Shown: positions 18,617 to 50,898 of the stretch, one piece after another
How positions within the stretch are numbered: position 1 is the first letter of the stretch
Layout of the letters: the number at the start of each line of letters is the position of its first letter
Source of the DNA: a virus
Lineage: Duplodnaviria; Caudoviricetes
DNA length: 54,356 bases
IMG/VR virus record: IMGVR_UViG_3300031949_000049
Coordinates: 1 to 54,356 of that record
Reading direction: 5' to 3' (one strand)
Notes under the pieces: model-generated
The model's database searches: none
What the model saw: the letters and a program-made list of their open reading frames with translations, nothing else
Told to the model about the DNA's origin: nothing
Translations under genes and position numbers: made by a program

Positions 18617-18886
18617 TTATAGTTGTTCTTTTTGATTGGCTTTGATGAGGATATTCGCAAGCCTGTCATAGCGAGCACGGCCCTCCTCGGTGGGCCTAAA
18701 ATGGTGTGTTAGCGAAGTACCGAGGCTGCCGATAAATGGGGCCGAATCCAGTTTGTACAAGAAACCGTCTTGGAGGAGGCGCACTATCATCGGATAAAAC
18801 TTCGACCTGTTGGGTGGAAAGGAGATCCCATACTGCAGGACGACGTGCTCATTTCCTAGTCGCTGAAACAGGGTGCTGGATTTCAT
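18617..18886 (-). CDS. small wHTH-like paralogue family member
   Basis: LLQDGF...P...FRPTEEG. Confidence 0.7.
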   Translation of the reverse strand: MKSSTLFQRLGNEHVVLQYGISFPPNRSKFYPMIVRLLQDGFLYKLDSAPFIGSLGTSLTHHFRPTEEGRARYDRLANILIKANQKEQL

Positions 18887-19173
18887 GAGATGATTGGCGC
18901 CCCTTGGAGTTTGAGTTCATAGCGCCTGAACTCTTGGATGATCATCTTCTGGCCGCCGTACATCAACCACGTCCAGGCATCGGCACCTTCCTTGGTGGCG
19001 GACAGACGTATCTTAACAAAGGGTCCGGGCACTGGGCTGTGATCGTTCAAGCGGAGCAATCCCAGGGATAAAAGCCTAGCGGCCTTGGCGCTGGAACCAA
19101 AATTATCCACGTATCCGTATCGAATGATCTCGAGATCATCTATGTCTAAGAACTCGGTCAACACCTTTTCCAC
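18883..19173 (-). CDS. small wHTH-like paralogue family member
   Basis: LLSLGL...SP...LSATKEG. Confidence 0.7.
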   Translation of the reverse strand: MEKVLTEFLDIDDLEIIRYGYVDNFGSSAKAARLLSLGLLRLNDHSPVPGPFVKIRLSATKEGADAWTWLMYGGQKMIIQEFRRYELKLQGAPIIS

Positions 19174-20183
19174 GCCGCGAACTCCATCCTTGCCTGCAGA
19201 CCCCGGAAGGTCCGCCTCTTTATTATCTCCAGTGGTCGCCTCCCGGCGAGTACCATCTCGTTGACGTCCTTCTCTGGGATGTCAGGCCAGATCACGATCT
19301 TTTCCCCCGCGGCGATGGACTTGGACATGATACCGACCAGCTGAGGACTCCTCGGCTCGTTGTCGTAGATCATGACCCTCTTGGGGATGCCGTCGAGTCG
19401 CCGGTTGGATGTTCCCATGGCAACGGCGTTCGGTAAGAATAAGGAGTCGATCGGGCCCTCTAGTACTAAGACGTCGTGGGTCGTGTCGATCCTGTCCATC
19501 CCGAACGCCGCCATGGGAACACCCTCGCCAGCGATCTTGATCGCTACATATTTAGGCTCCTCGCCGCGAATAGATCTGCCGGTGTAGCCACTTATATTTT
19601 TTTGTGCATCGCGAAGAGGAAATACTATGCGGCCGGCGTCGTGCCTGACCGCTCCGACGGAGAACTTCTCAGGGATGACGTTGGCGTTCACCCAGGCGAA
19701 GTACGAGTCAGTCCACCAGGCGTCGCCCATCCTCTGGGCGGGTATGCTCCTCCCGCCCCAGTAGACCACGGCGTCGTGTTCCTTGGGCAGGTCGCTGAGG
19801 CGCACGAGACCGACGGGCTCTCGCTGCCTTGGTGCGTCGTTGGGCACGGCCTCTCTGCTTCTGTCGGCGGACTCGGTGAAGGAGCGCTTCGCCGGATCCT
19901 GACGGAAGTATTCCGAGGAGTATTCCTCGAAGAGGCGGGTGTTGACGATCTTGAGGAGCTTCCTGAGGGTCGTCCCCTCGGAGCAGTTGTGGCACTTGAA
20001 GAGGACGGAGCCGTCGGGAACTCGGTAAACGTATCCCCTCGCCTTGGTCTTGCTCTTCTTGGAGTCGCCGCAGATGGGGCACCGAAAGTTGACCTGGAGC
20101 GGGCTGTGGCTGATGACCTTGAATCGGTCGACGTGGCCGGACAGCAGCATGACGTACTTGTCGTCGATCCACGGGAGATTCAT
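19158..20183 (-). CDS. 61: T4 gp61-like DNA primase
   Basis: NFRCPICGDS.K.K.KARG, FKCHNC, EGPIDSLF, DNEPR, KD.NEM. Confidence 0.95.
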   Translation of the reverse strand: MNLPWIDDKYVMLLSGHVDRFKVISHSPLQVNFRCPICGDSKKSKTKARGYVYRVPDGSVLFKCHNCSEGTTLRKLLKIVNTRLFEEYSSEYFRQDPAKRSFTESADRSREAVPNDAPRQREPVGLVRLSDLPKEHDAVVYWGGRSIPAQRMGDAWWTDSYFAWVNANVIPEKFSVGAVRHDAGRIVFPLRDAQKNISGYTGRSIRGEEPKYVAIKIAGEGVPMAAFGMDRIDTTHDVLVLEGPIDSLFLPNAVAMGTSNRRLDGIPKRVMIYDNEPRSPQLVGIMSKSIAAGEKIVIWPDIPEKDVNEMVLAGRRPLEIIKRRTFRGLQARMEFAAWKRC

Positions 20184-20416
20184 TTATTGAGGAATCCTCG
20201 GGCGAGACGCCTTGCCTCGGCACGACCCTCCTCCGTCCTGATAAAGTGTTGGTTCGCGTTACCCAGTGGATAGCGATCGATTTGTACATACCATCCGTTG
20301 GCTACGTAGTCTGCGAATTTAGGATCGTATTTCCTGAAGTTCCAGTAGATAGAACTCAAGACCACGAAAGGGCTATGGTTTTGAAAATGACTGGTGTTGC
20401 TATGTCCAAAATTCAT
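20180..20416 (-). CDS. small wHTH-like paralogue family member
   Basis: YVANGWY...P...FIRTEEG. Confidence 0.75.
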   Translation of the reverse strand: MNFGHSNTSHFQNHSPFVVLSSIYWNFRKYDPKFADYVANGWYVQIDRYPLGNANQHFIRTEEGRAEARRLARGFLNK

Positions 20417-20658
20417 AGGAGGACGCCTCTGTCCTTCTTCTTAGTTTTTTTCCAGAGTTCCTGATGGCCCTCCTTGGTGCGATAAAAGTCCTGGTAGGGA
20501 TGGCCAGGTTTCCGCTCCCACCTAACGAACCACCCATTCTCGAGATACCTGTCGAATCGTGGGTCGTGATCATAGAAAAACAGCCAGGTCCTCCTAAGGA
20601 TATCCCTATGCTTAGTGGAAATCACCGTGTTGCCGTTATACCACTTATTGCCGATCAT
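20413..20658 (-). CDS. small wHTH-like paralogue family member
   Basis: YLENGWF...P...FYRTKEG. Confidence 0.75.
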   Translation of the reverse strand: MIGNKWYNGNTVISTKHRDILRRTWLFFYDHDPRFDRYLENGWFVRWERKPGHPYQDFYRTKEGHQELWKKTKKKDRGVLL

Positions 20659-20867
20659 CTGCTGCTCAGTCTGTGATATTCATCGGTGCCCTCTCGTGTC
20701 CTCCCGCAGCACCGTGATGGGTGCATGTAAAGACCCACGGGAGAAGCCGTGCACATGACGAACCATCCGTTGGTGATGAATCTCTCCATGACGTCTTTGG
20801 TATAGTGGTGCGTGTCGATATTCACGTGGATCTGCTCGAGGATCTCAAGATCGGTGGGTCTCATCAT
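20655..20867 (-). CDS. small wHTH-like paralogue family member
   Basis: FITNGWF...SP...GRTREG; AAGGAG RBS. Confidence 0.75.
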   Translation of the reverse strand: MMRPTDLEILEQIHVNIDTHHYTKDVMERFITNGWFVMCTASPVGLYMHPSRCCGRTREGTDEYHRLSSR

Positions 20868-20877
20868 TTAGAACTCC

Positions 20878-21171
20878 TTATGGCAAGTCCCATGTGTCCC
20901 TCCCCAAGATACCTATGGCCCCAGAGTGAGCATAGCCTATATGGGTCTGGCCCTGTTTCTCAATGAGCCGATCAAGTTCCTTAAATCCTTCATCCGTGCG
21001 GATGAAGTAGTGAGTACTAAACATAGGCATTATATCTAACATCATGAACCATCCGTTGGACAGGAATCTTTCAAAGCCAGGATGATATGACTCGGCCATT
21101 ATGCACTGGGTCTTCAGGACCGTGATGTCGTCCGGCAAGTCTTTTGGTGGGGAGGATCTCTTGTTGGCCAT
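20878..21171 (-). CDS. small wHTH-like paralogue family member
   Basis: FLSNGWF...P...FIRTDEG; start uncertain. Confidence 0.7.
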   Translation of the reverse strand: MANKRSSPPKDLPDDITVLKTQCIMAESYHPGFERFLSNGWFMMLDIMPMFSTHYFIRTDEGFKELDRLIEKQGQTHIGYAHSGAIGILGRDTWDLP

Positions 21172-21251
21172 TATGATGGTACCCAAAGATGTATGGCAGG
21201 AGATCTTATATAAGCCCAAGCTGGGGCAGCTGTCAAGGCCACCAGAAGATT

Positions 21252-21518
21252 TTAATGGCTGTTGCCACCCTCGCCAGGGTGCCTGTTGAACTTGGTCGGC
21301 CTCTTTTCTCCCCTTCGATAGAATTCTCTATCGATAGCCTCCTCCTCGGGTGACTTGCGCTTGAGGATCTTTGGCAGCAGGTACTTATAGAAGGACTGCA
21401 TGATCACCGCGATGAATCCGGCGACGAAGGCCGGGCTTCGAAAATTCTTCCACATGGCCAGGCCAACGACGGCCAGCAGGAACAGACCCGCCACCCAGAG
21501 AAACCACGTCATGTCCAT
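21252..21518 (-). CDS. small membrane protein
   Basis: two TM segments and basic C-tail (holin-like architecture, unproven). Confidence 0.7.
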   Translation of the reverse strand: MDMTWFLWVAGLFLLAVVGLAMWKNFRSPAFVAGFIAVIMQSFYKYLLPKILKRKSPEEEAIDREFYRRGEKRPTKFNRHPGEGGNSH

Positions 21519-21973
21519 ATCCCCTTCTTTTTCCTGCGATAGAGTATCTTTCGTCTCTTAGCCGGCGGGTCTGAACCAGGAGGAATGCCCATCCCGGCAA
21601 CCTGCCCGCTACCCGCGCTGTTGGTCGGTGCGTCGTCGACGAGGAGCTGCGTCTCGAGGATGACTGCCACCACCTCGCTTATCTCCTCCATGTTGACCGG
21701 CTTCCCATTCTCCTCCTTGACGAGGTAGAGGGCCGCGGCCATGCTGGCGATCGTTGTGTTGCCGCCGGGAAGCTTTCCGATGAGCTTCTTGATGTTGGCG
21801 ACCATGAGATCAAAGATGCCAAAGACGGCTTTTTGTTCCGGCGTGAGTTCAGAGCGCTTCTTGAGCAACTTGCCGTCGGCGTCGATGACGCCCATGCGAA
21901 ATGCCGGCCACAGCTTGAACGGGAGGGCGAGCCTCTTGAGGAACTGGTAGGTGAGTATGGCGTCTAGGATCAT
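21509..21973 (-). CDS. T4 gp61.1-like conserved hypothetical protein
   Basis: YQF.K.L..PF..WPA...G.ID..G; located upstream of primase. Confidence 0.75.
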   Translation of the reverse strand: MILDAILTYQFLKRLALPFKLWPAFRMGVIDADGKLLKKRSELTPEQKAVFGIFDLMVANIKKLIGKLPGGNTTIASMAAALYLVKEENGKPVNMEEISEVVAVILETQLLVDDAPTNSAGSGQVAGMGIPPGSDPPAKRRKILYRRKKKGIWT

Positions 21974-22218
21974 GGTATCTTCTCAGCTGTCTTGTGTGTT
22001 TGAACTAACCATTCTGCTGCAGCCTTCTTAGATGGGTGTTCCCTCTTCATGCTCCAGTGTTTAGAATACGCCACGTAAGATTTCTTAGTTAGTGGTGTCT
22101 TGTTCTTTTTTTCCATAAAGTTGCCGATGTGTTTTCCATCGTAGTGCACCCCGATGACTGATCCGTCAGGAACTATCTTATAGTCTTTTGCTTCGCTGAA
22201 TTCCCTGAATCTTTTCAT
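21970..22218 (-). CDS. probable internal head protein
   Basis: N-terminus MKRFREFSEA resembles the T4 capsid-targeting sequence. Confidence 0.6.
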   Translation of the reverse strand: MKRFREFSEAKDYKIVPDGSVIGVHYDGKHIGNFMEKKNKTPLTKKSYVAYSKHWSMKREHPSKKAAAEWLVQTHKTAEKIP

Positions 22219-22595
22219 ATTTGCCTCAGCGCGTCTACGATGGTGTCGTCCATCACTATGTCGCTGTCCTTCACCGTCTTGCCCAGGACCTCTATCGACT
22301 CGGGCATCTGACCGATGAGGATGAGGAAAGGCTTCACGTACGGTTCCAGCCCCCGCATCTTGAGGAACAGCATCTTGGTCGCCGCCTCGGACCCGAAGAG
22401 GTTGTAGATGATGGTGATGTGATTGAGGATCAAGCGCTCCTTCAACTCACCGGTATCTACATATCGATTTATAAGGCGCTTGAGGTACTTGAAGTGCTTC
22501 ATGTCCTCCTGGAACTCCTCTACGCTTTCACAATTACGGTTATCGTAATGTTTCATCGCGTAATGGATGAAGTTCTCGTCCCGGAGGATCCCCAT
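22215..22595 (-). CDS. conserved T4-like hypothetical protein
   Basis: NF..YA.KHYDN..C...EEF.ED....KY.KRL..RY...GEL.ERLILNH. Confidence 0.88.
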   Translation of the reverse strand: MGILRDENFIHYAMKHYDNRNCESVEEFQEDMKHFKYLKRLINRYVDTGELKERLILNHITIIYNLFGSEAATKMLFLKMRGLEPYVKPFLILIGQMPESIEVLGKTVKDSDIVMDDTIVDALRQI

Positions 22596-22608
22596 GATTA
22601 TACTAGAC

Positions 22609-23001
22609 TTAGAACGTTGCGATAGCTACGCGCTTATAATGCGTCGCGTTGGCCTGCGCGTAGAGGAACGATCCGTCGGACCAGAACTTCCCGATGTCTG
22701 CCGCGGTGACGGAGTCTGTCGAGGAGGACGGGGTCGTGGTCTTCTTGACGAGAAAATTGTTGGCCACCACGTACTTGATGGTGTCAGCTGAGACGTTGCC
22801 CGCGAAGGTCGCCGCGTTTGCCGTCAGCTCACCGATGATCGCTACGTTGGCGGCGAAGGAGGTGTTAGACGGGATGGAGTTGACGAGGTTGGCCACGGTG
22901 ATCTTGTACGTGGTCGGTCCGGCCATGTCGACGACGATGATGAGGTCGTCCGCAGTAACGCCCGTCTGGGCACTCAGGTCTGTGATCTTCTTAGATGCCA
23001 C
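22609..23001 (-). CDS. virion structural/fibre-associated protein
   Basis: KKITDL.......DDL...VD....TYKI; C-terminal DGSFLY......KRVAI; GTG start after GGAG. Confidence 0.7.
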   Translation of the reverse strand: MASKKITDLSAQTGVTADDLIIVVDMAGPTTYKITVANLVNSIPSNTSFAANVAIIGELTANAATFAGNVSADTIKYVVANNFLVKKTTTPSSSTDSVTAADIGKFWSDGSFLYAQANATHYKRVAIATF

Positions 23002-25484: not shown

Positions 25485-25682
25485 TTATTTAGGATCATTG
25501 AGAGTGATACGTTCAACCCCTTCCGAAGACGTTACCACGTATGAGTGATAGATGCAGGGGTTTGAATCGAATCTCCAGACCCAACCGTTCTCAAGGCACA
25601 CCTGAACGACTTTGGGGTGGTGGTAAGAGACGTCGGCGACTCCCTGCTTAAGCAACTTGTTTATTCTTCTATTTGTTGTCAT
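25485..25682 (-). CDS. small wHTH-like paralogue family member
   Basis: CLENGWV...NP...VTSSEG. Confidence 0.7.
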   Translation of the reverse strand: MTTNRRINKLLKQGVADVSYHHPKVVQVCLENGWVWRFDSNPCIYHSYVVTSSEGVERITLNDPK

Positions 25683-26337
25683 GGCTCTTCTGTGGAAGGA
25701 ACAAGGCATCATTCATATATCGCATCGGAGGACCGTATCCCGCCTTGGTGAGTCCAGCTATGAGTTGCTCATCTGGTGCCTCTACGATTATGACGGGCTT
25801 GAACTTCTTAATGGTCCTGGTCGCGCCGTTGAGGACACGGTTCTCGTATCCTTCGACGTCAAGAAAGATCAGATCAACCCCGTTCTCCCAGCTGAACGAG
25901 TCGATCGTCAGGGTCGGAATGTATCCCTGCGGCCCGCCGTCCGCGCTGATCTTTGTCTCGCCGACGTTGAGAGGCGAGGCCCGATCGACGGTGATCATCT
26001 TAGGCTTCTCACCCAGCGCTGCCTGGAAACAGAGCACGTTCTCGGCCGGGTTGTTGAGCGACAAGACGTAGAAATTCGTGGGGTCCGGCTCGAAGGTGTA
26101 GACCGTCTGAAACATGCGCGACAACAACCGGGGATACATCCCCAGGTTGCCTCCGGCCTGGATGCACGTCCTCCGCATCTTCACGTGGCTGTTGATGGCC
26201 TGCTTGTGCTCAGGCCAGTCCCTCTCAGTATACTTCCATGAACCGACGTCGGTCTCTATCCAGAACCACTCGTGAACGCCGTCAACTGACCTTTTTGGAT
26301 AGAACTTTATCTCGGCGGTACCTACTTTTATTCGCAT
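25669..26337 (-). CDS. FkbM-family methyltransferase
   Basis: IQAGGNLG.Y, FEPD, AALG, LDVEGYE..VL.GA..TI....PVI. Confidence 0.9.
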   Translation of the reverse strand: MRIKVGTAEIKFYPKRSVDGVHEWFWIETDVGSWKYTERDWPEHKQAINSHVKMRRTCIQAGGNLGMYPRLLSRMFQTVYTFEPDPTNFYVLSLNNPAENVLCFQAALGEKPKMITVDRASPLNVGETKISADGGPQGYIPTLTIDSFSWENGVDLIFLDVEGYENRVLNGATRTIKKFKPVIIVEAPDEQLIAGLTKAGYGPPMRYMNDALFLPQKSHDNK

Positions 26338-26591
26338 CTTATGTGCCGTCCCTGTTTACACAGGACTGAGGCGCGTTTTATTCCTTCCTCTGTTGCCACT
26401 ATTAACGAAGCATTTCTGTATCTACTGGGATTTTTATCCTGTAGCCGGACCCAACCGTCCTCAAGGCATTTTTGAACGATGTGTGATTCATAGTCGGCGG
26501 GAAGGACGATACCAGTCTTAAGAAGATGAATTATGGCGTTGTTATCGTGAACGAATCTTAAGGGAAAACGAGGTGAAAAATCATAGCTCAT
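26328..26591 (-). CDS. small wHTH-like paralogue family member
   Basis: CLEDGWV...NP...VATEEG. Confidence 0.7.
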   Translation of the reverse strand: MSYDFSPRFPLRFVHDNNAIIHLLKTGIVLPADYESHIVQKCLEDGWVRLQDKNPSRYRNASLIVATEEGIKRASVLCKQGRHIRCE

Positions 26592-27608: not shown

Positions 27609-27896
27609 TCAATATACCTCGACCACCTTGCCGAACACCTCTATCGTCCACCCATTTATCCGGCCCTTGTTGTTGCCGATGAGGACTCCTCTGGTTGGTT
27701 TTATATCTTTCACTAGGTGGGTGTAGTAGTACTTGCCTACCTTACAGTATACGATGTCGTTGACTTCTACGTCGGTCCACTTCGTCGGACTCAGGCGGTG
27801 TTTCTGGCCCGACTTGATGAGGGGCTCCATGGAGTGACCCCTCTCGGAGGTGATGACATCCTGGCCGGCCTCCAGCTGTTCTCGCTTATTATTCAT
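27609..27896 (-). CDS. S24/S26 peptidase-like domain protein
   Basis: GHSMEPLI.SG, DIV.C, THLV, IGNNKG. Confidence 0.7.
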   Translation of the reverse strand: MNNKREQLEAGQDVITSERGHSMEPLIKSGQKHRLSPTKWTDVEVNDIVYCKVGKYYYTHLVKDIKPTRGVLIGNNKGRINGWTIEVFGKVVEVY

Positions 27897-29121
27897 CGAT
27901 GTCAGACTTCTCCATTATTTTCCCGTGCTCAACGGCCATCACGTCGGAGAAATGGTCAGAGCACTCGACGTAGTCGTTCATATATTCCATCAGACCGGCG
28001 ACGTCGTTGGTGAACAACGTGTCCTCGTCGTCGTCTCCCCTGATCACGAACTCGTCGACGTGGTCGAGACAGGTCAATGCAATGTTCTTCTTGACAGTGA
28101 TTCCAGACGCGGGCCCGTAGTCACTTGCCATGCGCTTTAGGACGTCCTCCTGAAAGAACGCTGTCCTAAATTCGCCCTGCCACTCGTTGTGAACGTTGGT
28201 CTCGTCGCTGAAGTGCGGGATGAATACCTCCCGGTCTTCTATATCTTGTTCATTCTCAAGAGGGCCAGGGCCGTGCCTAGTGACGTATGGGCGGGTGACG
28301 TAGTGCGCCTCGATGTTGTCGACGCCGTAGACCTGCGCCAGCATCGTCGGGTTCCATACACCGGTTTTCGATCTGGTGACGTACGGAAAGTTCTTACTGT
28401 TGTTCTCATCGAGGCCAAGCCCTTGACCACCTTCGAATACAGCCCTGTTGTTGGGGTTCGGCAGGACTGAGAAACTGATCGATGGGTGTTCTATGAGTAC
28501 CTTAGTCTTTTCGCATTCTGGTTCTACCAAGGCTTCTGCCATCTTGACGAAAGCCTTCACCGTTTCCGGGTCGATCTTGTAGCTCAGGAGGCGAGGAACA
28601 TAATAGGTGGTGATCATCCTGGTCATGAAGTCTCTGACTGAACTTATGCTTCCCTCGCAGAGGAAGTCATACATCGTCAGCTCAAAGCCGGCGAGGTTGC
28701 GGGTTACTGTCTCGTTGATGCCGTGCCCACAGGAACCATGGCGCTTGCCACCGCGGTTGGTCTCGAGTACCTGGTTCACCAGCATATCGATGCCGGTCAC
28801 AACCTGACAGTGGGGGGAGATGACGACCATCGGCATCAGCGTAAAGATCTCGTAGAAGGACTTCATCTCCTCGAGTAGGAGTGGTGGATTCACGAGATAC
28901 GTCTGGGCCAGATAGGTGAGTGCACCCCTGGCCGTGCCTGAGCCGAGTTGGCTATGGACGAACCTCTGGCCGTCGTGACCGATGGTGTGCCCGGCCTGGG
29001 CGCCGCCGTTGTGCTTTATCACCGTGCAGTCGGGATCGGCCAGGGCGTATGTGACGCTACCCTTCCCCTCGTCGCCGTAGCTGGCGCCTATGACCGCGTG
29101 TGCCTCCTCGAATAGTCTCAT
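27889..29121 (-). CDS. purA: adenylosuccinate synthetase-like protein (divergent PurA)
   Basis: GASYGDEGKG, NGGAQAGHT, HGSCG.GI, FEGGQG..LD, PYVTRS, TRHG.GP, TCLD. Confidence 0.85.
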   Translation of the reverse strand: MRLFEEAHAVIGASYGDEGKGSVTYALADPDCTVIKHNGGAQAGHTIGHDGQRFVHSQLGSGTARGALTYLAQTYLVNPPLLLEEMKSFYEIFTLMPMVVISPHCQVVTGIDMLVNQVLETNRGGKRHGSCGHGINETVTRNLAGFELTMYDFLCEGSISSVRDFMTRMITTYYVPRLLSYKIDPETVKAFVKMAEALVEPECEKTKVLIEHPSISFSVLPNPNNRAVFEGGQGLGLDENNSKNFPYVTRSKTGVWNPTMLAQVYGVDNIEAHYVTRPYVTRHGPGPLENEQDIEDREVFIPHFSDETNVHNEWQGEFRTAFFQEDVLKRMASDYGPASGITVKKNIALTCLDHVDEFVIRGDDDEDTLFTNDVAGLMEYMNDYVECSDHFSDVMAVEHGKIMEKSDIDE

Positions 29122-29139: not shown

Positions 29140-29808
29140 TTACAGCAGTGCAAATATTTTCTCTGGCGGCTCGGCCGCCTTGCGGTAGACCGCCTTCCTC
29201 TGACCTCGCTTGTATACCTCAAAGCCGAGCTCGAGGATCCTTTTTTCGGCCCTAACGTGATCGTAGAGGTTCGTGTCGTCGCAGACGAGCATCGCCCCGA
29301 CGTGCATCCGGTCAGCGAAGAACTCCGCCTCCTCGATCACGACCGTTGAGTCGTGCGGCCCGTCGAGGTGGGCGATGCAGTAGTGTGTCTCCCTCACCTT
29401 GCCCTTGTTGAAATAGGTGGGGACGTAGTCATAGAAGCGGGTGAAGAACTCACTATCCTCCATGTTGAACACGATGGGATTGACGGGCTTCTTCCCGTCG
29501 TAGTAGGTGAAGAGTTCCTGCAGGCACTGGGCACGCATCTCGTTTGTGTAGTCGGTGTAGAGACGAGTCTGGTTCTTCTCCGTCGTCAGATACTCGATGT
29601 CGCCCCATGGGTCGACCATGACGTGGGTCTTGAACTCTCCCTTCTTGATGAAGGAGTCCATGATCATCCGAGACCCACCTCCGCGACGGAGCCCAATCTC
29701 ACACCCCATGCCGACGATACCGGCTGCCATCTCGGCCGCCTCTGTGAGAAGCTCGTATTCTGTGGAGTCAGTCGGCAACATGTTCTCAGAGTATATGGTG
29801 ATGGTCAT
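29140..29808 (-). CDS. class I SAM-dependent methyltransferase (Methyltransf_24-like)
   Basis: EIG.R.G.GS, VDPWG, HLDGPH, CDD. Confidence 0.8.
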   Translation of the reverse strand: MTITIYSENMLPTDSTEYELLTEAAEMAAGIVGMGCEIGLRRGGGSRMIMDSFIKKGEFKTHVMVDPWGDIEYLTTEKNQTRLYTDYTNEMRAQCLQELFTYYDGKKPVNPIVFNMEDSEFFTRFYDYVPTYFNKGKVRETHYCIAHLDGPHDSTVVIEEAEFFADRMHVGAMLVCDDTNLYDHVRAEKRILELGFEVYKRGQRKAVYRKAAEPPEKIFALL

Positions 29809-33448: not shown

Positions 33449-33745
33449 TCAACCGTGTAAGACGTTCTCGTTAGAAAGAAGCCGGTGTCTTTTAACCATG
33501 AGTTCATCGAGACGGCGCCGCCCCTCAGGGGTTATCGCGAGCTCTACTCGCCGATGATGCCTCACAACACTGATTGGGCTGCAGTGCACCAGGGCGGCGT
33601 AGCCATTCTTGAGTATATTTTCCACTTGCCTTATTGTCCTATTATCGATGACCTCGTCGGACCCATGGAGGTAAAGGACGCCGTTCCACCACTTCCCGAC
33701 GTCGGCGAGGAACAACATCTCTTCATTTTCATCTATCGTCATCAT
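33449..33745 (-). CDS. small wHTH-like paralogue family member
   Basis: ILKNGY...SP...AITPEG. Confidence 0.7.
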   Translation of the reverse strand: MMTIDENEEMLFLADVGKWWNGVLYLHGSDEVIDNRTIRQVENILKNGYAALVHCSPISVVRHHRRVELAITPEGRRRLDELMVKRHRLLSNENVLHG

Positions 33746-33965
33746 TTCGTATCTTGAAGTAGTCTATTCCTTCTTTGGTGGCGGTCACGGATATGGTGCT
33801 GCGGTTGTTGCTTTCTCCAGAGGGGTTTCTAGGAGGTGAGTGATCGGTTAAGACTAGGAATCCATGGGAGAGGAGCGACTCGATGGTGATGATATTCTCG
33901 ATCATGCCGAACTTGCCCGCCCCACCGACGCTGGCCGCGACGATGTCTCTAGCTTTCCATTTCAC
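33729..33965 (-). CDS. small wHTH-like paralogue family member
   Basis: LLSHGF..TDHSP...TATKEG; start uncertain. Confidence 0.65.
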   Translation of the reverse strand: MKWKARDIVAASVGGAGKFGMIENIITIESLLSHGFLVLTDHSPPRNPSGESNNRSTISVTATKEGIDYFKIRNDDDR

Positions 33966-33972
33966 GCGCGGG

Positions 33973-34221
33973 CTAGAGTTTCCCACGGACCAATATTCCT
34001 TCACTGGTCAACCTGACCGTAATCGGATGTTGCTTCCGTGTAAACTCGTTTCCAGCTATCCAATATTCCGGGGAATAATTCTCCAGAGTTACGTACCCTT
34101 CCTGCATGGCCTCAATAACGTACGGAATGTTTTCTGGGAGAGTGAAATGAATCGGGGTTTGAAAATTACCACCACCACGGTGTTCCATAAGCAAGTCGAT
34201 GATAGTCCTGACGGAGGCCAT
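33973..34221 (-). CDS. small wHTH-like paralogue family member
   Basis: AMQEGY...SP...RLTSEG. Confidence 0.7.
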   Translation of the reverse strand: MASVRTIIDLLMEHRGGGNFQTPIHFTLPENIPYVIEAMQEGYVTLENYSPEYWIAGNEFTRKQHPITVRLTSEGILVRGKL

Positions 34222-35953: not shown

Positions 35954-36146
35954 TGTATATTTCCAATGCCCTCTTGGCGATCTTGCTCCCGCTTCCATTG
36001 CCAGCGGCCATCTCCTTTACACTCTCAACGAAGTCAGTCGAGCCCTCTATATTGACAAGCGCCTTGAGGCTGAGCGCGGCCTGTTGGGCGGCGTGTTCCT
36101 CGAGGTCGGCGATGTCCTTGGCGGTTAGGGTGTAGGGAGTCATCAT
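35940..36146 (-). CDS. hypothetical protein
   Basis: ATGA overlap with ClpB-like gene. Confidence 0.65.
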   Translation of the reverse strand: MMTPYTLTAKDIADLEEHAAQQAALSLKALVNIEGSTDFVESVKEMAAGNGSGSKIAKRALEIYNENL

Positions 36147-38198: not shown

Positions 38199-38471
38199 TC
38201 ACTTCTCCGTGCGAGTCAATCGATGTTGCATGGCGCCTTCACTCGTCCTGACGAAGTGCCAGACCCCAATAAGTCTTCCATTAGAATCGAATGGGCAAAC
38301 TTCTTCCTTATAGAACCAGCCATCCAATAGGAACTCGGCAAACTTCTCGGAATACTCGTTACCGTATAACATTTCACAACTCATGGTATAACCCTTAGAG
38401 ACGACGCCGGGTAGAATCTCATTAAGACGAAGCGTCCTCATGGCAAGTCGAGTTCCATATCTCAATTCCAC
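38199..38471 (-). CDS. small wHTH-like paralogue family member
   Basis: FLLDGWF...CP...FVRTSEG. Confidence 0.7.
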   Translation of the reverse strand: MELRYGTRLAMRTLRLNEILPGVVSKGYTMSCEMLYGNEYSEKFAEFLLDGWFYKEEVCPFDSNGRLIGVWHFVRTSEGAMQHRLTRTEK

Positions 38472-38556
38472 ATAGGCAGGTGGACCACCATGTCACCCGT
38501 GCAGTAAGTGAGCGCGAGACCAACAACTATGACGGTGAACCAATTCAACTTGCTCA

Positions 38557-38841
38557 TTATTTCAATTCCTGTGCGCGGGGCCCAGCTAACCGATAGTATT
38601 CAGTCGCGCCTTCTTCAGTCCTCTCAAACAACCATTGGAACGCGTCGAGCGGTGATGTCTCAATCTTGAAGAACCAACCGTTCTTCAAGACCTCGTCAAA
38701 CTCACCGGATAGATAACAGCGGTGATCTGTATAGACAATTCTACACTGCAACAAGGCGATCATATTGGTGATAGCTGGGACGATTGGTTTCTTCATACCG
38801 AGAAAGAAATGGCGCAGTTTCCCGCGCCATCGCCTTATCAT
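38557..38841 (-). CDS. small wHTH-like paralogue family member
   Basis: VLKNGWF...SP...FERTEEG. Confidence 0.7.
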   Translation of the reverse strand: MIRRWRGKLRHFFLGMKKPIVPAITNMIALLQCRIVYTDHRCYLSGEFDEVLKNGWFFKIETSPLDAFQWLFERTEEGATEYYRLAGPRAQELK

Positions 38842-44757: not shown

Positions 44758-45774
44758 TTACTTCTCCTTGTAAGCGTCGCTGGCTACATTGCCAAAGTCG
44801 ACGAATTTACGCATACCGAAGGCGTCTGACCGAGCCTTCTCCCATCCCTGGTATTCCAGGACGGCGTCGTCACCAGACGCAGTGGACGTCCAGATGTCGA
44901 GACTCCGAGGCACCGATTTGACTCCCGCCAGGCAGTATCTCCCGAGTGCCTTCACGGCCTCCAGGTCTAATCTAATACTCGCCCTCTTATCTTTGTAGGC
45001 GCCAGGAAGCACGTTCTCATGGATCCAGTTCGGGATCACCTCGAGTCGCGCGTGCCTAGGGCGGAAGAACCACCAGCCACCGATCACCTGGATGGAATGG
45101 TTCTTGGTGTCGATGAAGACGTTCTGTGGGGTGAGGGCGCAGTGCACCATCTTCTGGTACTGCATGAAACAGCAGAAGTCGTAAAGCGAACTCAGTATCC
45201 AGGCGGTGTGCCTAGGATCCAGCGGGCCGAACGCCGACACGACGTCCTCGAGTGCCGCCGTCGCCGTGTCGCGGCCGATGGTGACGAGTTCCTTGTCATC
45301 CATGCCGAGCATCTTTTTCGACAGCATCGGCAAGTATTTGATGACATTCTTCTTGATCGAAGTGTCCTTGATGAGGTGGATGTTGTCGATGATCTTTATT
45401 CCGGCGGCGGCCATCTCTCTCGGGATGACGCACGTAAGTGATCTACTGGTGATGAACTCCTCGCCGAGATCCCCGGTCCGCCTCTTTAGATACCTAACAA
45501 CCATCGAGGCGTCGGAACCCCTGATGAGTGCGGAGTTCTTCCCGTGTCCGGCCCACACACCCGACTTCAGCTCGTCGATGGCGAGGTCGTACATCTTCAA
45601 CAAGTTGGAGAAGGCCGATGAGGCCTGGGGGTCCTTGGACTTATCGGGGTGGACCTCCTTGGCGAGATCCACGTAGCGCTTCTTTATCTCCTCGGCGGTC
45701 TCGCACCCGGAGAAGATGTCGGACATGATCGGGGAGAGTGCTATTTGAATAGCTTCTTGAATAGCTTCCTGCAT
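44758..45774 (-). CDS. J-domain fused to protein-kinase-like (pseudokinase) domain
   Basis: Y..LA...HPD; later VHCALTPQNVFI...VIGGWW. Confidence 0.8.
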   Translation of the reverse strand: MQEAIQEAIQIALSPIMSDIFSGCETAEEIKKRYVDLAKEVHPDKSKDPQASSAFSNLLKMYDLAIDELKSGVWAGHGKNSALIRGSDASMVVRYLKRRTGDLGEEFITSRSLTCVIPREMAAAGIKIIDNIHLIKDTSIKKNVIKYLPMLSKKMLGMDDKELVTIGRDTATAALEDVVSAFGPLDPRHTAWILSSLYDFCCFMQYQKMVHCALTPQNVFIDTKNHSIQVIGGWWFFRPRHARLEVIPNWIHENVLPGAYKDKRASIRLDLEAVKALGRYCLAGVKSVPRSLDIWTSTASGDDAVLEYQGWEKARSDAFGMRKFVDFGNVASDAYKEK

Positions 45775-45977
45775 TCGTCCTCTCCTTCTGAAGTTAGTCT
45801 ATAGATGTCAGCGGCGTCGTAGAAGCCCTCTTTCACCCGATACAGCCATCCTTGTTCGAGAAAATATATGAAGCTGTTCCGAAGGTGGACGGGATACCAT
45901 TCGCCGCCGTGTCTGACGCAGAACGGCGTTGATCCCCGCATAAATGACATATTGTAGATGTGTTGTTCACGCGTCAT
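45741..45977 (-). CDS. small wHTH-like paralogue family member
   Basis: FLEQGWL...YRLTSEG. Confidence 0.7.
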   Translation of the reverse strand: MTREQHIYNMSFMRGSTPFCVRHGGEWYPVHLRNSFIYFLEQGWLYRVKEGFYDAADIYRLTSEGEDECRKLFKKLFK

Positions 45978-46221
45978 CTTGCCACCCCAACACTTTCTTG
46001 CCTTCGTCGGTGAGCACATAGTGCTCGGTGGAAAAGGTCAGGGCCGGCCCTTGGTAGCGCATCCATTCGTTCTTGAGAAAATACTCGAAGGCTTTCCGTT
46101 TGAGTTCATCTTCCCAAGCACTACCAAGATGGTGCACTGTGAACATGCCGTCTCCACGGAAGTGCAAGTGATAGGCGGCCCTCATCCGCATGATGTAGGT
46201 ATTCTCTATCAGATCGGCCAT
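45967..46221 (-). CDS. small wHTH-like paralogue family member
   Basis: FLKNEWM...YVLTDEG. Confidence 0.7.
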   Translation of the reverse strand: MADLIENTYIMRMRAAYHLHFRGDGMFTVHHLGSAWEDELKRKAFEYFLKNEWMRYQGPALTFSTEHYVLTDEGKKVLGWQDDA

Positions 46222-46476: not shown

Positions 46477-46490
46477 GTAACGTAGAAGAA

Positions 46491-46565: not shown

Positions 46566-46566
46566 A

Positions 46567-46641: not shown

Positions 46642-46699
46642 AAAGATCTTCACCTCGGAGCTTATCCCGAGATGGCCCTTGGTAGGGTCTTGAGTGGAT

Positions 46700-46707
46700 T
46701 ATTTATA
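46700..46707 (-). promoter_or_regulatory. T4-type late promoter
   Basis: TATAAATA upstream of the Gln/Val/Glu tRNAs. Confidence 0.7.
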
Positions 46708-46714
46708 GAAGTGG

Positions 46715-47650
46715 AAGCTTGGGACTGGCGGGCTTCCGTGTCGATCCTTCGGGCATTATAGCACCTCTTGCTTAGAGAGGTCTTTCTCCCGGCGTCTATC
46801 AATCCCGGCGACGGAGCGCACTGGTGGACAGTAGACCGACGATGTCGCAGTTTTTAGGGTCATGCGGTAGACCCGTCACGGCAGACTATTCCGTTCCTTC
46901 CTCACCGTTAGCCTTGCGAGCTATTCGCCCCCGCTAAGGGACTACGATTTCTCTAGAGCGAACCGACTCGGCCTTGCGAGCTCTGTCGGACTAGGTTACC
47001 CTTGCGGGCCCCAGTGTTAGACAACTTTCACCTACCGTCGAGGTAGACTTTGCGTTTTGTAATGCTCAGCTGGATTCGCACCAGCAAAAGCCTCTGTTCA
47101 AAGAGGTTGACAGCTATTGTCAATGTGCAACCCACCGAGATGTGCTACCTCGACTGCTCCGAATCTTGTTAGACCCAGAATACAGCACACCTTCATGCCT
47201 TTCGCTTGCGACTACTTAGCGATCCTTCGCGAACTCGTCCGGTTTAGCGCCCGACCTCATCCACTCGAACTGGGACCTAGCCCTAGGGTGCTTTACGCCC
47301 TCGGACATCATCCCCTACCCTTTCCCGTCTTGATTAGAGAGTCGGTTAGTTGGAGGACGGCACCACCCGTTTCACTTCCCCCACAAGAGTTCCCGGCAAG
47401 CCGGCTCCTGAGTAGGGTTACGTTTCCAACATCTCTCGTACTCCGTAGGCCCGGCGGTTTTATTGCCGAGCCGCCTGTCACCAGGCCGGGCGAGTTTGCA
47501 TAAGTGGACTATTGCTAGCACCGGTATCGTGGGATTCCCGGTATTGGCTCCATTGCTGGAGTTATCCTTGATGCACCCGAAGGCACACCCTATCCAACCC
47601 GAAGGCTGGAGACGACATCATACTGCCGCGAATTCATTTTAACTTAGTGT
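46715..47650 (-). ncRNA. large ornate ncRNA, GOLLD-like
   Basis: about 930 nt with no credible ORF, own TTGACA-17-TATATA promoter (47660-47687), many UUCG/GCAA hairpins, long-range helix GGUGUGCUG/UAGCACAUC, adjacent to tRNAs; GOLLD identity is from recalled motifs, ends approximate. Confidence 0.75.
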
Positions 47651-47655
47651 ATGGC

Positions 47656-48490: not shown

Positions 48491-48750
48491 TGTGGCTTAG
48501 GTGGTTTCTCTGTGAAGACGCACTCGACAGATACGTCTTCGATATGCAATTCCTTGTCTTTCCAAACCGTGAATCCATCTTCCTTCTTGACTACCGCGTC
48601 CTTCATCACCTTCTCAGTGAAGTCTGCCAACTCGGAGCACGCATTTGCGTCGACGACCTTTCCACTAGGCAAGATGAACTGATCGAGCGGCCCATAGACG
48701 ACGACTGGATCACCCATGAAGTACATTATAACGTAGAGGTGCTTGAGCAT
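48484..48750 (-). CDS. hypothetical protein
   Basis: TAATG overlap. Confidence 0.65.
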   Translation of the reverse strand: MLKHLYVIMYFMGDPVVVYGPLDQFILPSGKVVDANACSELADFTEKVMKDAVVKKEDGFTVWKDKELHIEDVSVECVFTEKPPKPQW

Positions 48751-48986
48751 TACTGTTCCTCGTATTCCATGTCTACCCCAGCCTCTACGAAGGATTGTTC
48801 TAGGGCGTCCTTGGCGTCGTAGAAAGCCAGGGCCCTTGTCTTGAGATCTGAGTCGGGGAGTTTCTCGAATGAACTCTTGTTGTGATATCCGTCTAGCCAG
48901 TAGGCCAGGCCCTCATAGGCAATCTTCGCGGCTACGTCCTCGACCGAGTCGTAACCGAGGTGTTCAAACCATTCTTTCGCCATCAC
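48750..48986 (-). CDS. hypothetical protein
   Basis: operon context. Confidence 0.65.
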   Translation of the reverse strand: MMAKEWFEHLGYDSVEDVAAKIAYEGLAYWLDGYHNKSSFEKLPDSDLKTRALAFYDAKDALEQSFVEAGVDMEYEEQ

Positions 48987-49189
48987 ACCAACTCACACCT
49001 TCTGCCAGTGGATACACACTCGGCCAGCCATATAGGATTTGGAACGTGCCATGGGAAGTTGAGGCCTATCCATGTGACGGCGAACATCATACACCACATG
49101 ATCACCGGTAAGAGGATCAGCATGATCAGGCAGCCGACTACCGAAATCCATACTGACTCGTCGGGTTTCTTTGCCTCGTCGTCAACCAT
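48983..49189 (-). CDS. small membrane protein
   Basis: GGAGG RBS, hydrophobic core. Confidence 0.65.
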   Translation of the reverse strand: MVDDEAKKPDESVWISVVGCLIMLILLPVIMWCMMFAVTWIGLNFPWHVPNPIWLAECVSTGRRCELV

Positions 49190-49203
49190 GTCGACCTCCG
49201 TGT

Positions 49204-49279
49204 TGGTAGTCCCCCGCGGTTTCGAACCGCGCTATTCGCCGTGTAAAAGCGACGTCTTCACCGAGCTGACCCGGGGACC
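49204..49279 (-). tRNA. tRNA-Val(UAC)
   Basis: cloverleaf, loop UUUACAC, ACCA. Confidence 0.88.
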
Positions 49280-49289
49280 TTCTATATAT

Positions 49290-49367
49290 TGGTGCACCGC
49301 CTAGGAATCGAACCTAATTCTCTCCCTCTTCAGGGGAGCGCTGAATAACCATACTAGCTCGCAGTGC
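49290..49367 (-). tRNA. tRNA-Phe(GAA)
   Basis: cloverleaf, loop CUGAAGA, ACCA. Confidence 0.88.
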
Positions 49368-49613
49368 TTAATTTTTTCTATTTCCGTCTTCATCATAGAG
49401 TGCCCGTAACATCGCCTCCGCCACCGCTATGACCCCGGCCACGTCCGGCCACCTAGATGGATCTCCGGCCACGTTGCTATTCCCTGGTCGATTCTTCGCC
49501 TCATCGAATATCTTGTGCAGATCCTGCATCGTCAATCCAGGAACGATGTATGCACATTCTAATTCTATGCCTTGGTGTTCTACACGATGCATTCCAAAAT
49601 CTGGGCGCTTCAT
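49368..49613 (-). CDS. hypothetical protein
   Basis: ATGA overlap. Confidence 0.6.
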   Translation of the reverse strand: MKRPDFGMHRVEHQGIELECAYIVPGLTMQDLHKIFDEAKNRPGNSNVAGDPSRWPDVAGVIAVAEAMLRALYDEDGNRKN

Positions 49614-49828
49614 CTTACCATTGCTCCAGCCTCGACGGCCAGCTTCCTCTTATCCTCATTAAGATCATAGTGAGGAACCCCTCGCCTCGACCTCTCGAAC
49701 CAACATTTCTTAACACCGATCCTCTCGGCAAACTCGTGAAGTTCACGTATCGTGGTCGCCGTCAGATGGCAATACTTCTTCCTCCCTTTCGAGCTCGTCC
49801 GGAACAAAGCTGAGTCCACGTACACCAT
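49610..49828 (-). CDS. DUF4031-like protein
   Basis: VYVD...CHL.A....ELH.FA..IG....WF......HYDL...R..A...GA. Confidence 0.8.
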   Translation of the reverse strand: MVYVDSALFRTSSKGRKKYCHLTATTIRELHEFAERIGVKKCWFERSRRGVPHYDLNEDKRKLAVEAGAMVR

Positions 49829-50204
49829 GATCATCACCATAATCCGTGTCGCGGTGCGTGTACAGGAAAACTTGGATGCCGGCCTCGGCGGCCACGTTGA
49901 TCATGTCCCTGGTTCCCTTCGACTTCTCGATATCATCATGGAACGCCACGACCACGTCGGGTTTCCCCTCCTTGAGCATCTGGCGGTTGCGGATCGGGCC
50001 CGCCGCCCTGTGGTATCTATCCCAGTCCGCCGGATAAGGTTCAGGCCTGATGCCTCTGGACTTCGCCCAGTTGGCAGCCATCTTGTCTGCTCCCCTGGCG
50101 TCACCGTGAATGATCACCGAGGCGTGGAGCCAAAACCTCGATAGGATGCGCTCCATGAACACAAAATCCTTCCACTCGCGGTCGCCGCAGACGAGCACCC
50201 TCAT
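49743..50204 (-). CDS. SLOG superfamily (DUF2493/YspA-like) protein
   Basis: VLVCG.R, IIHG.ARGAD, ADW....AAGPIRN..M, S.GT..M. Confidence 0.85.
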   Translation of the reverse strand: MRVLVCGDREWKDFVFMERILSRFWLHASVIIHGDARGADKMAANWAKSRGIRPEPYPADWDRYHRAAGPIRNRQMLKEGKPDVVVAFHDDIEKSKGTRDMINVAAEAGIQVFLYTHRDTDYGDDHGVRGLSFVPDELEREEEVLPSDGDHDT

Positions 50205-50297
50205 GGGACCAACCAGTCCACGCCGTAACCGACTGCCGCGCAGATGACGATTATCATCACGAGTTCTATGAATCGAAGCATGTCTACTCCTTCAAGT

Positions 50298-50373
50298 TGG
50301 TAGCCAGTGTGGGAATCGAACCCATCGTTTCACGCTTATCGGGCGTGCGCCCTAGCCATTGGACGAACCGGCT
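50298..50373 (-). tRNA. tRNA-Ile(GAU)
   Basis: cloverleaf, loop CCGAUAA, bulged T-stem, ACCA. Confidence 0.8.
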
Positions 50374-50639
50374 TTTATCTTCTTGCAGACCTTCACCCCC
50401 TCGGCGGTAAAGTGAAACTGATTAGATGCGCCAAAAGACCCATACCAACCCTCACGAGTCCTCTCGATGAGATTCATCCTTAGTAGGTATATAATTTCGT
50501 TTCGCACGGTGGCCGACCGCCATGGGGCCCCGTGTGTCGAGGTGAACCCGCAAAAAGTAATGCGCGGTTCACCTTCTGTAGGAATCTTGTTGAACACCGT
50601 GCACAGAAAACTCCTTACTATCTCAAGATTATACACCAA
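50352..50639 (-). CDS. small wHTH-like paralogue family member
   Basis: LLRMNLIER...FHFTAEG. Confidence 0.65.
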   Translation of the reverse strand: MVYNLEIVRSFLCTVFNKIPTEGEPRITFCGFTSTHGAPWRSATVRNEIIYLLRMNLIERTREGWYGSFGASNQFHFTAEGVKVCKKIKAGSSNG

Positions 50640-50898
50640 TTCTCAACCTATGGTACATTCTCATCCCCTCATCGGTAAATTCAAAGATGTCTCTGGAGCC
50701 TCCCGTGACCCAGCCGTCCTGGGTCCGCTCAACCAGCCCTTCTTTTATCAAGAGATTAAGATCATCCTTCACCTCCGGATATTTGTAGTTCGTAGAATCT
50801 AGGTGCAGATCCCTGCGGTGACTAAATGTCATACGGTGGCCTTCGTACGGCCGCCTTATGACACCCTTTGTGAATCTTAAGAACAACTCGTCGTTCAT
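50629..50898 (-). CDS. small wHTH-like paralogue family member
   Basis: LIKEGLVER...FEFTDEG. Confidence 0.7.
   Translation of the reverse strand: MNDELFLRFTKGVIRRPYEGHRMTFSHRRDLHLDSTNYKYPEVKDDLNLLIKEGLVERTQDGWVTGGSRDIFEFTDEGMRMYHRLRIGV

Follow-up and report, generated by a model that had tools for sequence, protein, structure and literature searches.

MarR repressors such as Sco3205 (PDB 3zpl) and E. coli MarR (5h3r) are proteins of ~140-180 aa with terminal dimerisation helices and three helices before the wing. Their recognition helix ends in '..L..nGW', the first wing strand is followed by Pro, and the second strand ends in 'T-x-E-G', after which another helix begins. F93 of STIV (2co5), Sso10a (1r7j, 4hw0), AspA (5k5o) and PadR-like proteins, of viral, archaeal and plasmid kinds, are smaller DNA binders (~90-110 aa) with a full three-helix HTH, in which the winged helix is followed by one helix. 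In T4-type phages, variable ('hyperplastic') regions lie between the core genes. A small binding-type domain can be multiplied into many paralogues within a single phage lineage; Bacillus phage G has ~35 zinc-ribbon copies, besides Myb-type HTH proteins, as lineage-specific expansions, according to the available excerpt of PMC7824862.

Here we describe a protein family from a soil phage fragment of 54,356 nucleotides (the window, meaning the whole stretch of DNA analysed), which represents ~31% of a phage estimated at ~175 kb. The family shares the recognition-helix end, the Pro, the 'T-x-E-G' ending and the following helix with MarR repressors. It differs from them in length (65-100 aa), in the absence of terminal dimerisation helices, in a helix that is on average acidic and, in predicted models, in having two helices before the wing rather than three. 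Its length and its single helix after the wing are as in the F93/Sso10a/AspA/PadR-like group, although no significant sequence match to that group was found and structural Z scores were low. Compared with phage G as covered by the same excerpt, the domain is a different one, predicted to be a reduced winged helix; the phage is the smaller of the two, and the family has no homologue outside its contig.

Membership and mutual homology

The original prediction listed 18 small ORFs as dispersed, highly divergent paralogues. All 18 were found at their low coordinates, by which members are named here; all lie on the minus strand and all reading frames are intact (Table 1). The set searched comprised 770 stop-to-stop ORFs of at least 40 aa in six frames of the window. 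The strict pattern [NDEQ]G[WFY].{8,32}T.EG matched 14 of these, every one on the predicted list, compared with a mean of 0.25 and a maximum of 3 in 200 residue shuffles. The 4,858 ORFs of the two closest relatives yielded a single match, and the 15,512 ORFs of 82 related loci yielded two.

Fourteen firm members are joined by pairwise phmmer links at E 1e-3 to 1e-9. A jackhmmer search seeded with 20180 gathered 12 members and one seeded with 45741 gathered four (45741, 45967, 50352, 50629); combined, the two runs recovered all 14. The two subgroups are bridged by 45967 (phmmer E 1.5e-4 to 20878 and 4e-5 to 45741). An HMM of the 14 returned every firm member at E 5e-13 to 1e-23, and the next-best three of the 770 ORFs were 18883, 33449 and 33729. 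When single sequences were compared with the 14 by hhalign, the non-core members reached probabilities of up to 82%, compared with at most 2.6% for 62 other small window ORFs. Weak phmmer links connected 33729 to 18883 (E 0.0046) and to 33973 (E 0.0065). An 18-member HMM run against stop-masked translations revealed no extra or broken copies. These findings indicate one expanded, strongly diverged paralogue family of 14 to 18 copies, as had been proposed: 14 are beyond doubt, 18883 probably belongs, 33449 and 33729 may belong, and 33973 is doubtful by sequence, its inclusion depending on the motif and the predicted fold.

Table 1. Family members and other features of the window (HMM of the 14 firm members against 770 ORFs; hhalign of single sequences against the 14)
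Coordinates	Strand	Assignment	HMM E value	hhalign probability	Public-library protein	Remarks
15594..16442		SegE-type GIY-YIG homing endonuclease gene
18617..18886	-	firm member, 89 aa	2.3e-19		P0008	4-nt overlap with 18883
18883..19173	-	probable member, 96 aa, GTG start	0.002	82% over 65 columns		top non-member in HMM search
20180..20416	-	firm member, 78 aa	6.4e-23		P0001	modelled
20413..20658	-	firm member, 81 aa	1.7e-23		P0002	phmmer to 20180 E 4e-9
20655..20867	-	firm member, 70 aa	2.2e-19		P0010	AAGGAG upstream of ATG
20878..21171	-	firm member, 97 aa from gene-caller's ATG	3.2e-23		P0003
25485..25682	-	firm member, 65 aa	3.8e-20		P0009	nearest is 26328, E 2e-9
26328..26591	-	firm member, ~87 aa from internal ATG, start uncertain	5.3e-19			ORF open to 26747; missing among the 13 own-window proteins returned by public protein search
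33449..33745	-	possible member, 98 aa	0.064	49%		strict pattern match
33729..34004	-	possible member, 91 aa, GTG start	0.082	26%
33973..34221	-	doubtful by sequence, fold-supported, 82 aa	7	6%		pattern match; modelled
38199..38441	-	firm member, 80 aa	1.6e-21		P0004	nearest is its neighbour 38557
38557..38796	-	firm member, 79 aa	1.2e-23		P0005
45741..45977	-	firm member, 78 aa	9.6e-17		P0006	subgroup with 45967, 50352, 50629
45967..46221	-	firm member, 84 aa	1.5e-21		P0011
47656..47949	-	firm member, 97 aa	4.4e-22		P0007
50298..50373		tRNA-Ile
50352..50636	-	firm member, 94 aa, GTG start	4.8e-13		P0013	3' end overlaps tRNA-Ile by 22 nt
50629..50898	-	firm member, 89 aa	1.3e-15		P0012
51988..52515		weak His-Me finger match

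Composition, divergence and gene arrangement

The GC content of the family was 0.488 (n = 18), compared with 0.566 in 25 minus-strand genes of at least 600 nt (Mann-Whitney p 4e-7) and 0.529 in 37 other small minus-strand ORFs (p 6e-4), which confirmed the impression that family genes are AT-richer than their neighbours. GC3 was 0.59 in the family, 0.75 in the large genes and 0.64 in the other small ORFs. Single family genes ranged from 0.46 to 0.54 GC, versus 0.39-0.42 in the true endonuclease genes of the window.

Identity within the conserved module averaged 23% (range 9-41%), and hairpin length varied from 17 to 28 residues, in keeping with the variable wing that had been predicted. The N-termini, described originally as unrelated, indeed failed to align, but most share a helix-then-strand pattern. 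The 11 residues ahead of the G-W anchor had a mean net charge of -0.39 and were net negative in 9 of 18 members, and the last helix had a mean charge of +1.8. The pI of the whole proteins extended from 5.8 to 10.3, with half of the members (9/18) at 9.3-10.3. The invariant Gly, Thr and Glu are encoded by all their synonymous codons, and DNA similarity among copies was limited to motif codons (repeat families D5 and D11), the other similarity found being that of tRNA T-loops. Conservation of the family is at the protein level.

The genes form eight clusters of 1 to 4 genes apiece. Overlapping start and stop codons, said to be usual, were seen at 15 of 27 junctions, often as 4-nt ATGA-type overlaps, so this description was roughly right. 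Sixteen members had a non-self phmmer match at E<1, and in 10 of them the best match lay within the same local cluster. No flanking or terminal DNA repeats were found in the repeat search. We infer that, in this phage lineage, tandem duplication was the main source of new copies, which then diverged strongly.

Predicted fold

When the family profile was compared with 177,635 PDB sequences, the best match was the MarR repressor 3zpl_A (E 0.0048, residues 80-131), and the alignment spanned the recognition-helix end, the wing and the next helix. The AF2 model of 20180 (model 1; pLDDT 74.7) showed strand 21-26, helix 32-39, hairpin 43-45/55-60 and helix 62-76. The model of 33973 (model 2; pLDDT 77.7; H4-13, E24-26, H29-40, E44-48, E67-71, H73-81) was built from an 18-row alignment that included the family and is biased towards the family fold.

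In VIA structural comparisons, the top rows for both models were nearly all winged helices. The best matches were 3f3x_A for model 1 (Z 4.4, rmsd 3.5, 59 aligned) and 2jtv for model 2 (Z 6.9, rmsd 2.4, 63 aligned); model 2 also matched MarR proteins at Z ~6 (5h3r_A: Z 6.1, rmsd 3.2, 64 aligned) and 61 chains in all at Z of at least 5, the F93/Sso10a/AspA/PadR-like group appeared at Z 3.6-4.2 for model 1 and up to 5.7 for model 2, and 2jtv was among the rows for model 1 at Z 3.6, all of these values being below 8, where a match may reflect merely a common arrangement. The 2jtv entry is RPA3401 of Rhodopseudomonas palustris, a protein of 65 residues, of which 63 aligned with the 33973 model at a sequence identity of 8%; no paper was found under the RPA3401 name. 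Foldseek against PDB and BFVD gave nothing at E 0.001 or better.

The predicted models have one (20180) or two (33973) helices before the hairpin, not a three-helix core. The fold is thus predicted to be a reduced winged helix with the order helix, strand, helix, hairpin wing, helix, in which the second HTH helix would be missing; two moderate-confidence models and the linker lengths point to this absence. The proposed likeness to MarR/PadR proteins therefore held for the recognition-helix end, wing and 'T-x-x-G' cap, but the models argue against a regular MarR/PadR domain. We infer descent from a MarR-like domain.

Distribution and genomic setting

Pfam and PHROGs gave no match for the family, and no nuclease, integrase, recombinase or transposase domain was found with them in any member. 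HTH-clan Pfam models, including those for MarR/PadR (PF01047, PF12802, PF03551), were reached at gathering score by 0 of 18 members. The best HTH-clan row was PadR, for 50629 only (E 0.013, scoring 16 bits where 27 are required); this protein also had a MotA_activ row (E 0.0041), and both were below cut-offs. A search of 1.84 billion representatives and 5.8 billion clusters returned only the window's own proteins. The family was absent from 11 related phage records (Atu_ph07 and 10 related IMG/VR records) and from 1.31 Mb of related loci; as positive control, the window's own record gave 14/14. The family is therefore an orphan, with no homologue outside one contig among the databases and related records searched.

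Agrobacterium phage Atu_ph07 is a distant relative of the window's phage, and a complete relative of 175,763 bp is colinear with the window. Core proteins shared with the relative G001, in which no family member was found, are 26-78% identical (RNR 78%, Lon-like 66%, primase 59%); set beside these values, the module identities within the family indicate fast divergence. The family had been placed between core genes; consistent with this, family genes occupy only gaps between the genes common to the window and the colinear G001. These variable slots are bordered by shared replication, nucleotide-metabolism and tRNA genes. Family genes are missing at the syntenic sites of relatives, and because only a single contig family and one sequencing run have yielded this phage, loss in the relatives is not separable from gain here. 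Present in many paralogues here and absent from related genomes, this small domain has undergone lineage-specific expansion in a large phage. As in T4-type variable regions, the core is colinear and its gaps are taken up by small accessory genes that vary from one relative to the next; unlike in those regions, the repeat search showed no shared cassettes of promoters or stem-loops next to family genes. Two relatives have expanded small-protein families of their own, each different from this one, that of G001 being scattered and that of G002 arranged in tandem.

Discussion

We propose that the family is a lineage-specific, tandemly expanded panel of small putative binders on a reduced, MarR-derived winged-helix scaffold, and we give this reading about an even chance. 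The scaffold would run from helix 1 and strand 1 through a 'recognition-type' helix ending in N-G-W, a hairpin wing with Pro after its first strand and the T-x-E-G cap to a final helix. Only residues that determine the fold are conserved, and the N-terminus, exposed helix face and wing loop differ from copy to copy; the helix equivalent to the DNA-reading one is short and slightly acidic on average. Because a fixed core is combined with variable surfaces and this short acidic helix, the copies would most likely be a panel of binders, each with its own target. Host or phage proteins, bound in takeover or counter-defence accessory functions, would be favoured as targets over classical operator DNA.

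Since half of the proteins and the last helix are basic, nucleic-acid binding stays quite possible. The copies could be a lineage-specific set of specific transcription factors or architectural nucleoid-type proteins whose helix and wing contact DNA or RNA and whose last helix assists or dimerises; we consider such a set a serious candidate, if on the unlikely side. The nearest relatives in sequence and fold are DNA-binding winged helices (MarR, PadR, Sso10a, F93 and AspA types). The excerpt of PMC7824862 reports that large phages encode between 1 and 15 transcription factors of their own, most of HTH or wHTH type, and there the zinc-ribbon expansion of phage G is proposed to consist of transcription factors or structural DNA binders. 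This must be set against the missing HTH helix 2 in both models, the short and often net negative equivalent of the recognition helix, and wing tips that do not have the Arg-rich pattern of the aligned MarR stretch. Moreover, with more than half of the junctions overlapping, most copies have no intergenic room for an operator of their own, and no member reached a Pfam HTH model. Relaxed constraint on genes that the phage can spare would likewise be compatible with the low GC3 and the extreme divergence: the copies might be the drifting remains of a single acquired gene, now lacking any separate function and not under diversifying selection, and no relative of the family is found outside this contig. 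All 18 frames are intact, however, with no pseudogene remnant, scaffold residues are fixed while codons vary, and the genes lie closely packed against their neighbours, which makes this improbable.

The original prediction also raised a self-spreading mini-cassette. Selfish mobile cassettes, or remnant DNA-binding modules of homing endonucleases, might have spread between core genes, and the dispersal, AT-richness and absence from relatives' syntenic sites are as expected from this. The window contains true homing endonuclease genes (one a weak match; Table 1), and the GIY-YIG protein P0015, encoded elsewhere, has repeats with a similar motif, '..YL.nGW'. This similarity spans 15 columns only, however, and the endonuclease genes are lower in GC than the family. 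No domain of a nuclease, integrase or transposase occurs in the family proteins, the copies are neither flanked by direct repeats nor decayed, and DNA similarity among them is limited to motif codons. At the module identities observed, no copy is a recent transposition. We regard mobile cassettes as very improbable and did not retain that part of the prediction.

Beyond the panel of small binders that we prefer, a speculative and rather unlikely reading is that the phage has made its own 'binder library'. A minimal scaffold without helix 2 would have been diversified copy by copy in an arms race, at the wing loop, the N-terminal tail and the exposed side of the helix, and every paralogue would inactivate a host defence or regulatory protein of its own, for example by mimicry or capping of host winged-helix regulators. 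If this is true, related phages would answer the same problem by expanding other, unrelated families in these slots of the genome.

Homology of the small ORFs

All 18 small ORFs of the original prediction were found in the window, every one on the minus strand; they are named here by their low coordinates. The pattern common to their C-terminal 45-50 residues starts with hydrophobic-x-x-h-L-x-N-G-W, continues with a strand, Pro, variable loop, and second strand, and closes with T-x-E-G and a helix that frequently has R-L. Of the window's 770 six-frame ORFs, 14 matched a strict regular expression, [NDEQ]G[WFY].{8,32}T.EG, and every one of these is on the predicted list; 200 shuffles of ORF residues gave a mean of 0.25 matches (maximum 3). 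Matches numbered 1 among 4,858 ORFs of the nearest two relatives, and 2 among 15,512 ORFs of 82 related loci. The shared pattern of the original prediction is far above chance.

The mutual homology claimed for the 18 ORFs held for most of them. Scored against the 770 ORFs, phmmer connected the members as a network, with E values of 1e-3 to 1e-9. jackhmmer started with 20180 retrieved 12 members; started with 45741, it retrieved a subgroup (45741, 45967, 50352, 50629). An HMM built from the 14 firm members detected each of these at E 5e-13 to 1e-23. The next-ranked ORFs of the 770 were 18883 (E 0.002), 33449 (0.064), and 33729 (0.082); the unlisted ORF 22609-23001 scored E 0.35, and 33973 scored E 7. 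hhalign probability against the 14 was 82% for 18883, 49% for 33449, 26% for 33729, and 6% for 33973, and reached at most 2.6% in a control set of 62 other small window ORFs. 33973 fits the regular expression and has a weak phmmer link to 33729. The family comprises 14 firm members, one probable (18883), two possible (33449 and 33729), and one doubtful (33973).

Genomic setting

The window, 54,356 bases long, is an entire virus record with an estimated completeness of 31%. It codes for ribonucleotide reductase, primase, an adenylosuccinate-synthetase/PurZ-like enzyme, a Lon-like protease, exonucleases, PhoH, methyltransferases, a dCMP-deaminase-like protein, a DnaJ-domain protein, and 16 tRNAs. 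Across this phage group the Lon-like protease is conserved, with relatives sharing 46-66% identity; by this measure, Agrobacterium jumbo phage Atu_ph07 is the closest named phage (46%), and the closest uncultivated relatives are phages G001 (66%) and G002 (64%). G001 has 175,763 bases with terminal repeats. The window is colinear with its positions 14.6-75.9 kb, with core proteins 26-78% identical. Family genes form eight clusters of one to four, located only in gaps between genes shared with G001, which confirms their predicted placement between core genes. The AT-richness originally judged by eye was also evident in GC per gene: family genes have 0.488, large genes 0.566, and other small ORFs 0.529 (GC3 0.59, 0.75, and 0.64, respectively).

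Features of the window and expanded families of its two nearest relatives
Feature	Sequence	Positions	Strand	Remarks
Inserted gene without Pfam match	window	1281-2003	+	matches same G001 ORF as 15594-16442
tmRNA gene, alphaproteobacterial-type (permuted, two-piece)	window	1934-2290	-	Rfam alpha_tmRNA, 85.7 bits, E 7e-22
SegE-type GIY-YIG homing endonuclease with NUMOD3 motifs	window	15594-16442	-	Pfam E 4e-38
Adenylosuccinate-synthetase-like gene	window	27889-29121	-	PHROGs groups with PurZ-type enzymes, E 1.3e-54; Pfam Adenylsucc_synt 6e-36
Lon-like ATP-dependent protease	window	36143-38173	-	directly downstream of family gene 38199
DnaJ-domain protein	window	44758-45774	-	directly downstream of family gene 45741
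Weak His-Me finger endonuclease match	window	51988-52515	-	E 0.003
Expanded family, six dispersed copies, about 125-150 aa	G001	19184-19564, 19580-19963, 38261-38641, 54745-55164, 61078-61542, 142328-142765		
Expanded family, seven tandem copies, about 100-128 aa	G002	20046-22612		

The Lon-like protease and DnaJ-domain protein are phage-encoded proteostasis genes. A stretch of ~1 kb (46642-47655), which separates the tRNA-Gln/Val/Glu cluster from family gene 47656, has no minus-strand ORF of at least 45 aa and only plus-strand ORFs (e.g., 47117-47503); no Rfam family matched in it. The three inserted genes (see Table) are low in GC (0.39-0.42). ARAGORN also predicted a permuted tmRNA, with tag AANDNAPFRAMALAA. 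An alphaproteobacterial-type phage tmRNA points to an alphaproteobacterial host, in agreement with the kinship to Atu_ph07. The PurZ-like gene adjoins methyltransferase genes, and the minus-strand intervals 29140-29808 and 25669-26337 are given with it. The phage may modify its own DNA bases, possibly with 2-aminoadenine.

Predicted fold

AlphaFold2 models were obtained for 20180 (model 1; 14-row alignment; pLDDT 74.7) and 33973 (model 2; 18-row alignment; pLDDT 77.7). In model 1, a disordered N-terminus leads into a strand (21-26), a helix (32-39), a hairpin (43-45/55-60), and a final helix (62-76). In model 2, helices at 4-13 and 29-40 flank a strand at 24-26, and a long hairpin leads to the last helix (73-81). 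Doubtful member 33973 was thus predicted with the element order of the family, from an alignment that contains the family. Among sequences of solved structures, the family profile matched that of MarR repressor 3zpl_A best (E 0.0048); the alignment runs from the end of the recognition helix through the wing to the helix after it. VIA-align comparison with 48,161 chains listed almost exclusively winged-helix proteins, with scores that the tool rates weak to middling: for model 1, Z was 4.4 at most; for model 2, it was 6.9 with 2jtv and about 6 with MarR proteins, and 61 chains had a Z of at least 5. Foldseek gave no match at E 0.001 or better in PDB or BFVD. ESM Atlas leads were dropped, as neither the top feature score, 0.77 (DUF3873), nor the structural TM, at most 0.44, reached the tool's lead level.

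The proposed likeness of the conserved module to the recognition-helix end, wing, and following motif of MarR/PadR winged helices was supported by the 3zpl_A match and, at weak to middling Z, by the VIA-align listings. In the predicted models, the wing comes after two helices only. Because of this, and because the end of helix 1 lies only about 20-22 residues from the G-W anchor in core members, we read the domain, on these predictions, as a winged helix without the second helix of the helix-turn-helix.

Distribution and comparison with other phages

Neither Pfam nor PHROGs had a significant family for any of the 18 members. The 14-member profile gave 15 matches at E 0.001 or better among 1.84 billion representative proteins, and 13 of these were the window's own. 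The two foreign matches, library proteins P0014 and P0015 (E about 6e-4), were rejected as homologues, having a short motif in common with the family: P0014 is a repetitive 176-aa protein, and hhalign aligned only 15 columns of the P0015 repeats, in the family's helix. P0015 (385 aa) is a GIY-YIG-like endonuclease with six repeats, whose unit of ~38 residues ends in '..YL.nGW.G' and has no Pfam coverage; it possibly represents a type of DNA-binding repeat in homing endonucleases that has not been described so far.

A word-indexed search with the 14- and 18-row profiles, covering 5.8 billion clusters, yielded the window's own proteins only, each on one contig. A contig of 103,598 bases that carries some of them has been recorded. 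No related loci were found among viral contigs (queries P0001 [20180] and P0006 [45741]) or metagenome contigs (P0001), scans that possibly did not include the window's own records. The search of relatives for further copies that the original prediction proposed yielded none in Atu_ph07, in ten related IMG/VR records (positive control on the window's own record, 14/14), in all ORFs of G001 and G002 (unfiltered hmmsearch, best E 0.23), or in 1.31 Mb of related loci (unfiltered hmmsearch, best E 0.24). Among public sequencing runs, one DNA run (soil metagenome, possibly the contig's source) and no RNA run contained the stretch.

Lineage-specific expansions of small DNA-binding-type domains in large phages are already published: according to PMC7824862, large phages have their own transcription factors (1-15 per phage), and phage G has a zinc ribbon in roughly 35 copies. 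In comparison with the expansions described there, the present family has a different domain (a predicted reduced winged helix), is a complete orphan, and has relatives with other, unrelated expanded families. We found no literature on paralogous winged helix proteins in jumbo phage. At least three of the six G001 copies adjoin shared core genes. The G001 and G002 families had no Pfam match and were rejected as kin of the window's family (hhalign probability 0.3% or less). These findings show the same variable slots being filled, in closely colinear phages, by different small-protein families that expanded independently, which may be a general pattern.

Origin and possible function

The family copies are genes, not DNA repeats. 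All synonymous codons are in use for the invariant Gly, Thr, and Glu, and the gene caller of the public protein library predicted these same ORFs (P0001-P0013, P0016, P0017). The genes overlap adjoining features at 15 of 27 junctions, several of the 4-nt ATGA type, in agreement with the predicted start/stop overlap. A diversity-generating retroelement or template/variable repeat pair was rejected, since the window has no long direct repeats. A self-spreading mini-cassette, one of the roles originally suggested, had no support: DNA similarity between copies is confined to motif codons (repeat families D5 and D11), and a search of stop-masked translations with an HMM of all 18 members revealed no extra or decayed copies in the window.

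The best non-self phmmer match lay within the same cluster for 10 of the 16 members having one, consistent with tandem duplication; a history of such duplication followed by divergence fits the family. Conserved residues are the fold-holding ones, whereas the N-terminus, exposed helix positions, and hairpin (17-28 residues) are variable. Mean net charge is -0.39 for the recognition-helix equivalent and +1.8 for the last helix, and whole-protein pI ranges from 5.8 to 10.3. Our leading but tentative reading of these sequences, given slightly under even probability, is that the copies would be a panel of protein binders serving host takeover or counter-defence. Nucleic acid binding is a less probable role, to which we give about a third of the weight. 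Drift or other roles account for the remainder.

The present weight of the finding is modest, because this is an orphan family of putative function from one soil metagenome contig. If the copies are a diversified binder panel, the locus would supply, in compact form, 14-18 natural variants of a single very small scaffold, with which the evolution of new host-interaction specificities in phages could be studied, and the winged-helix fold would gain a new, minimal version.
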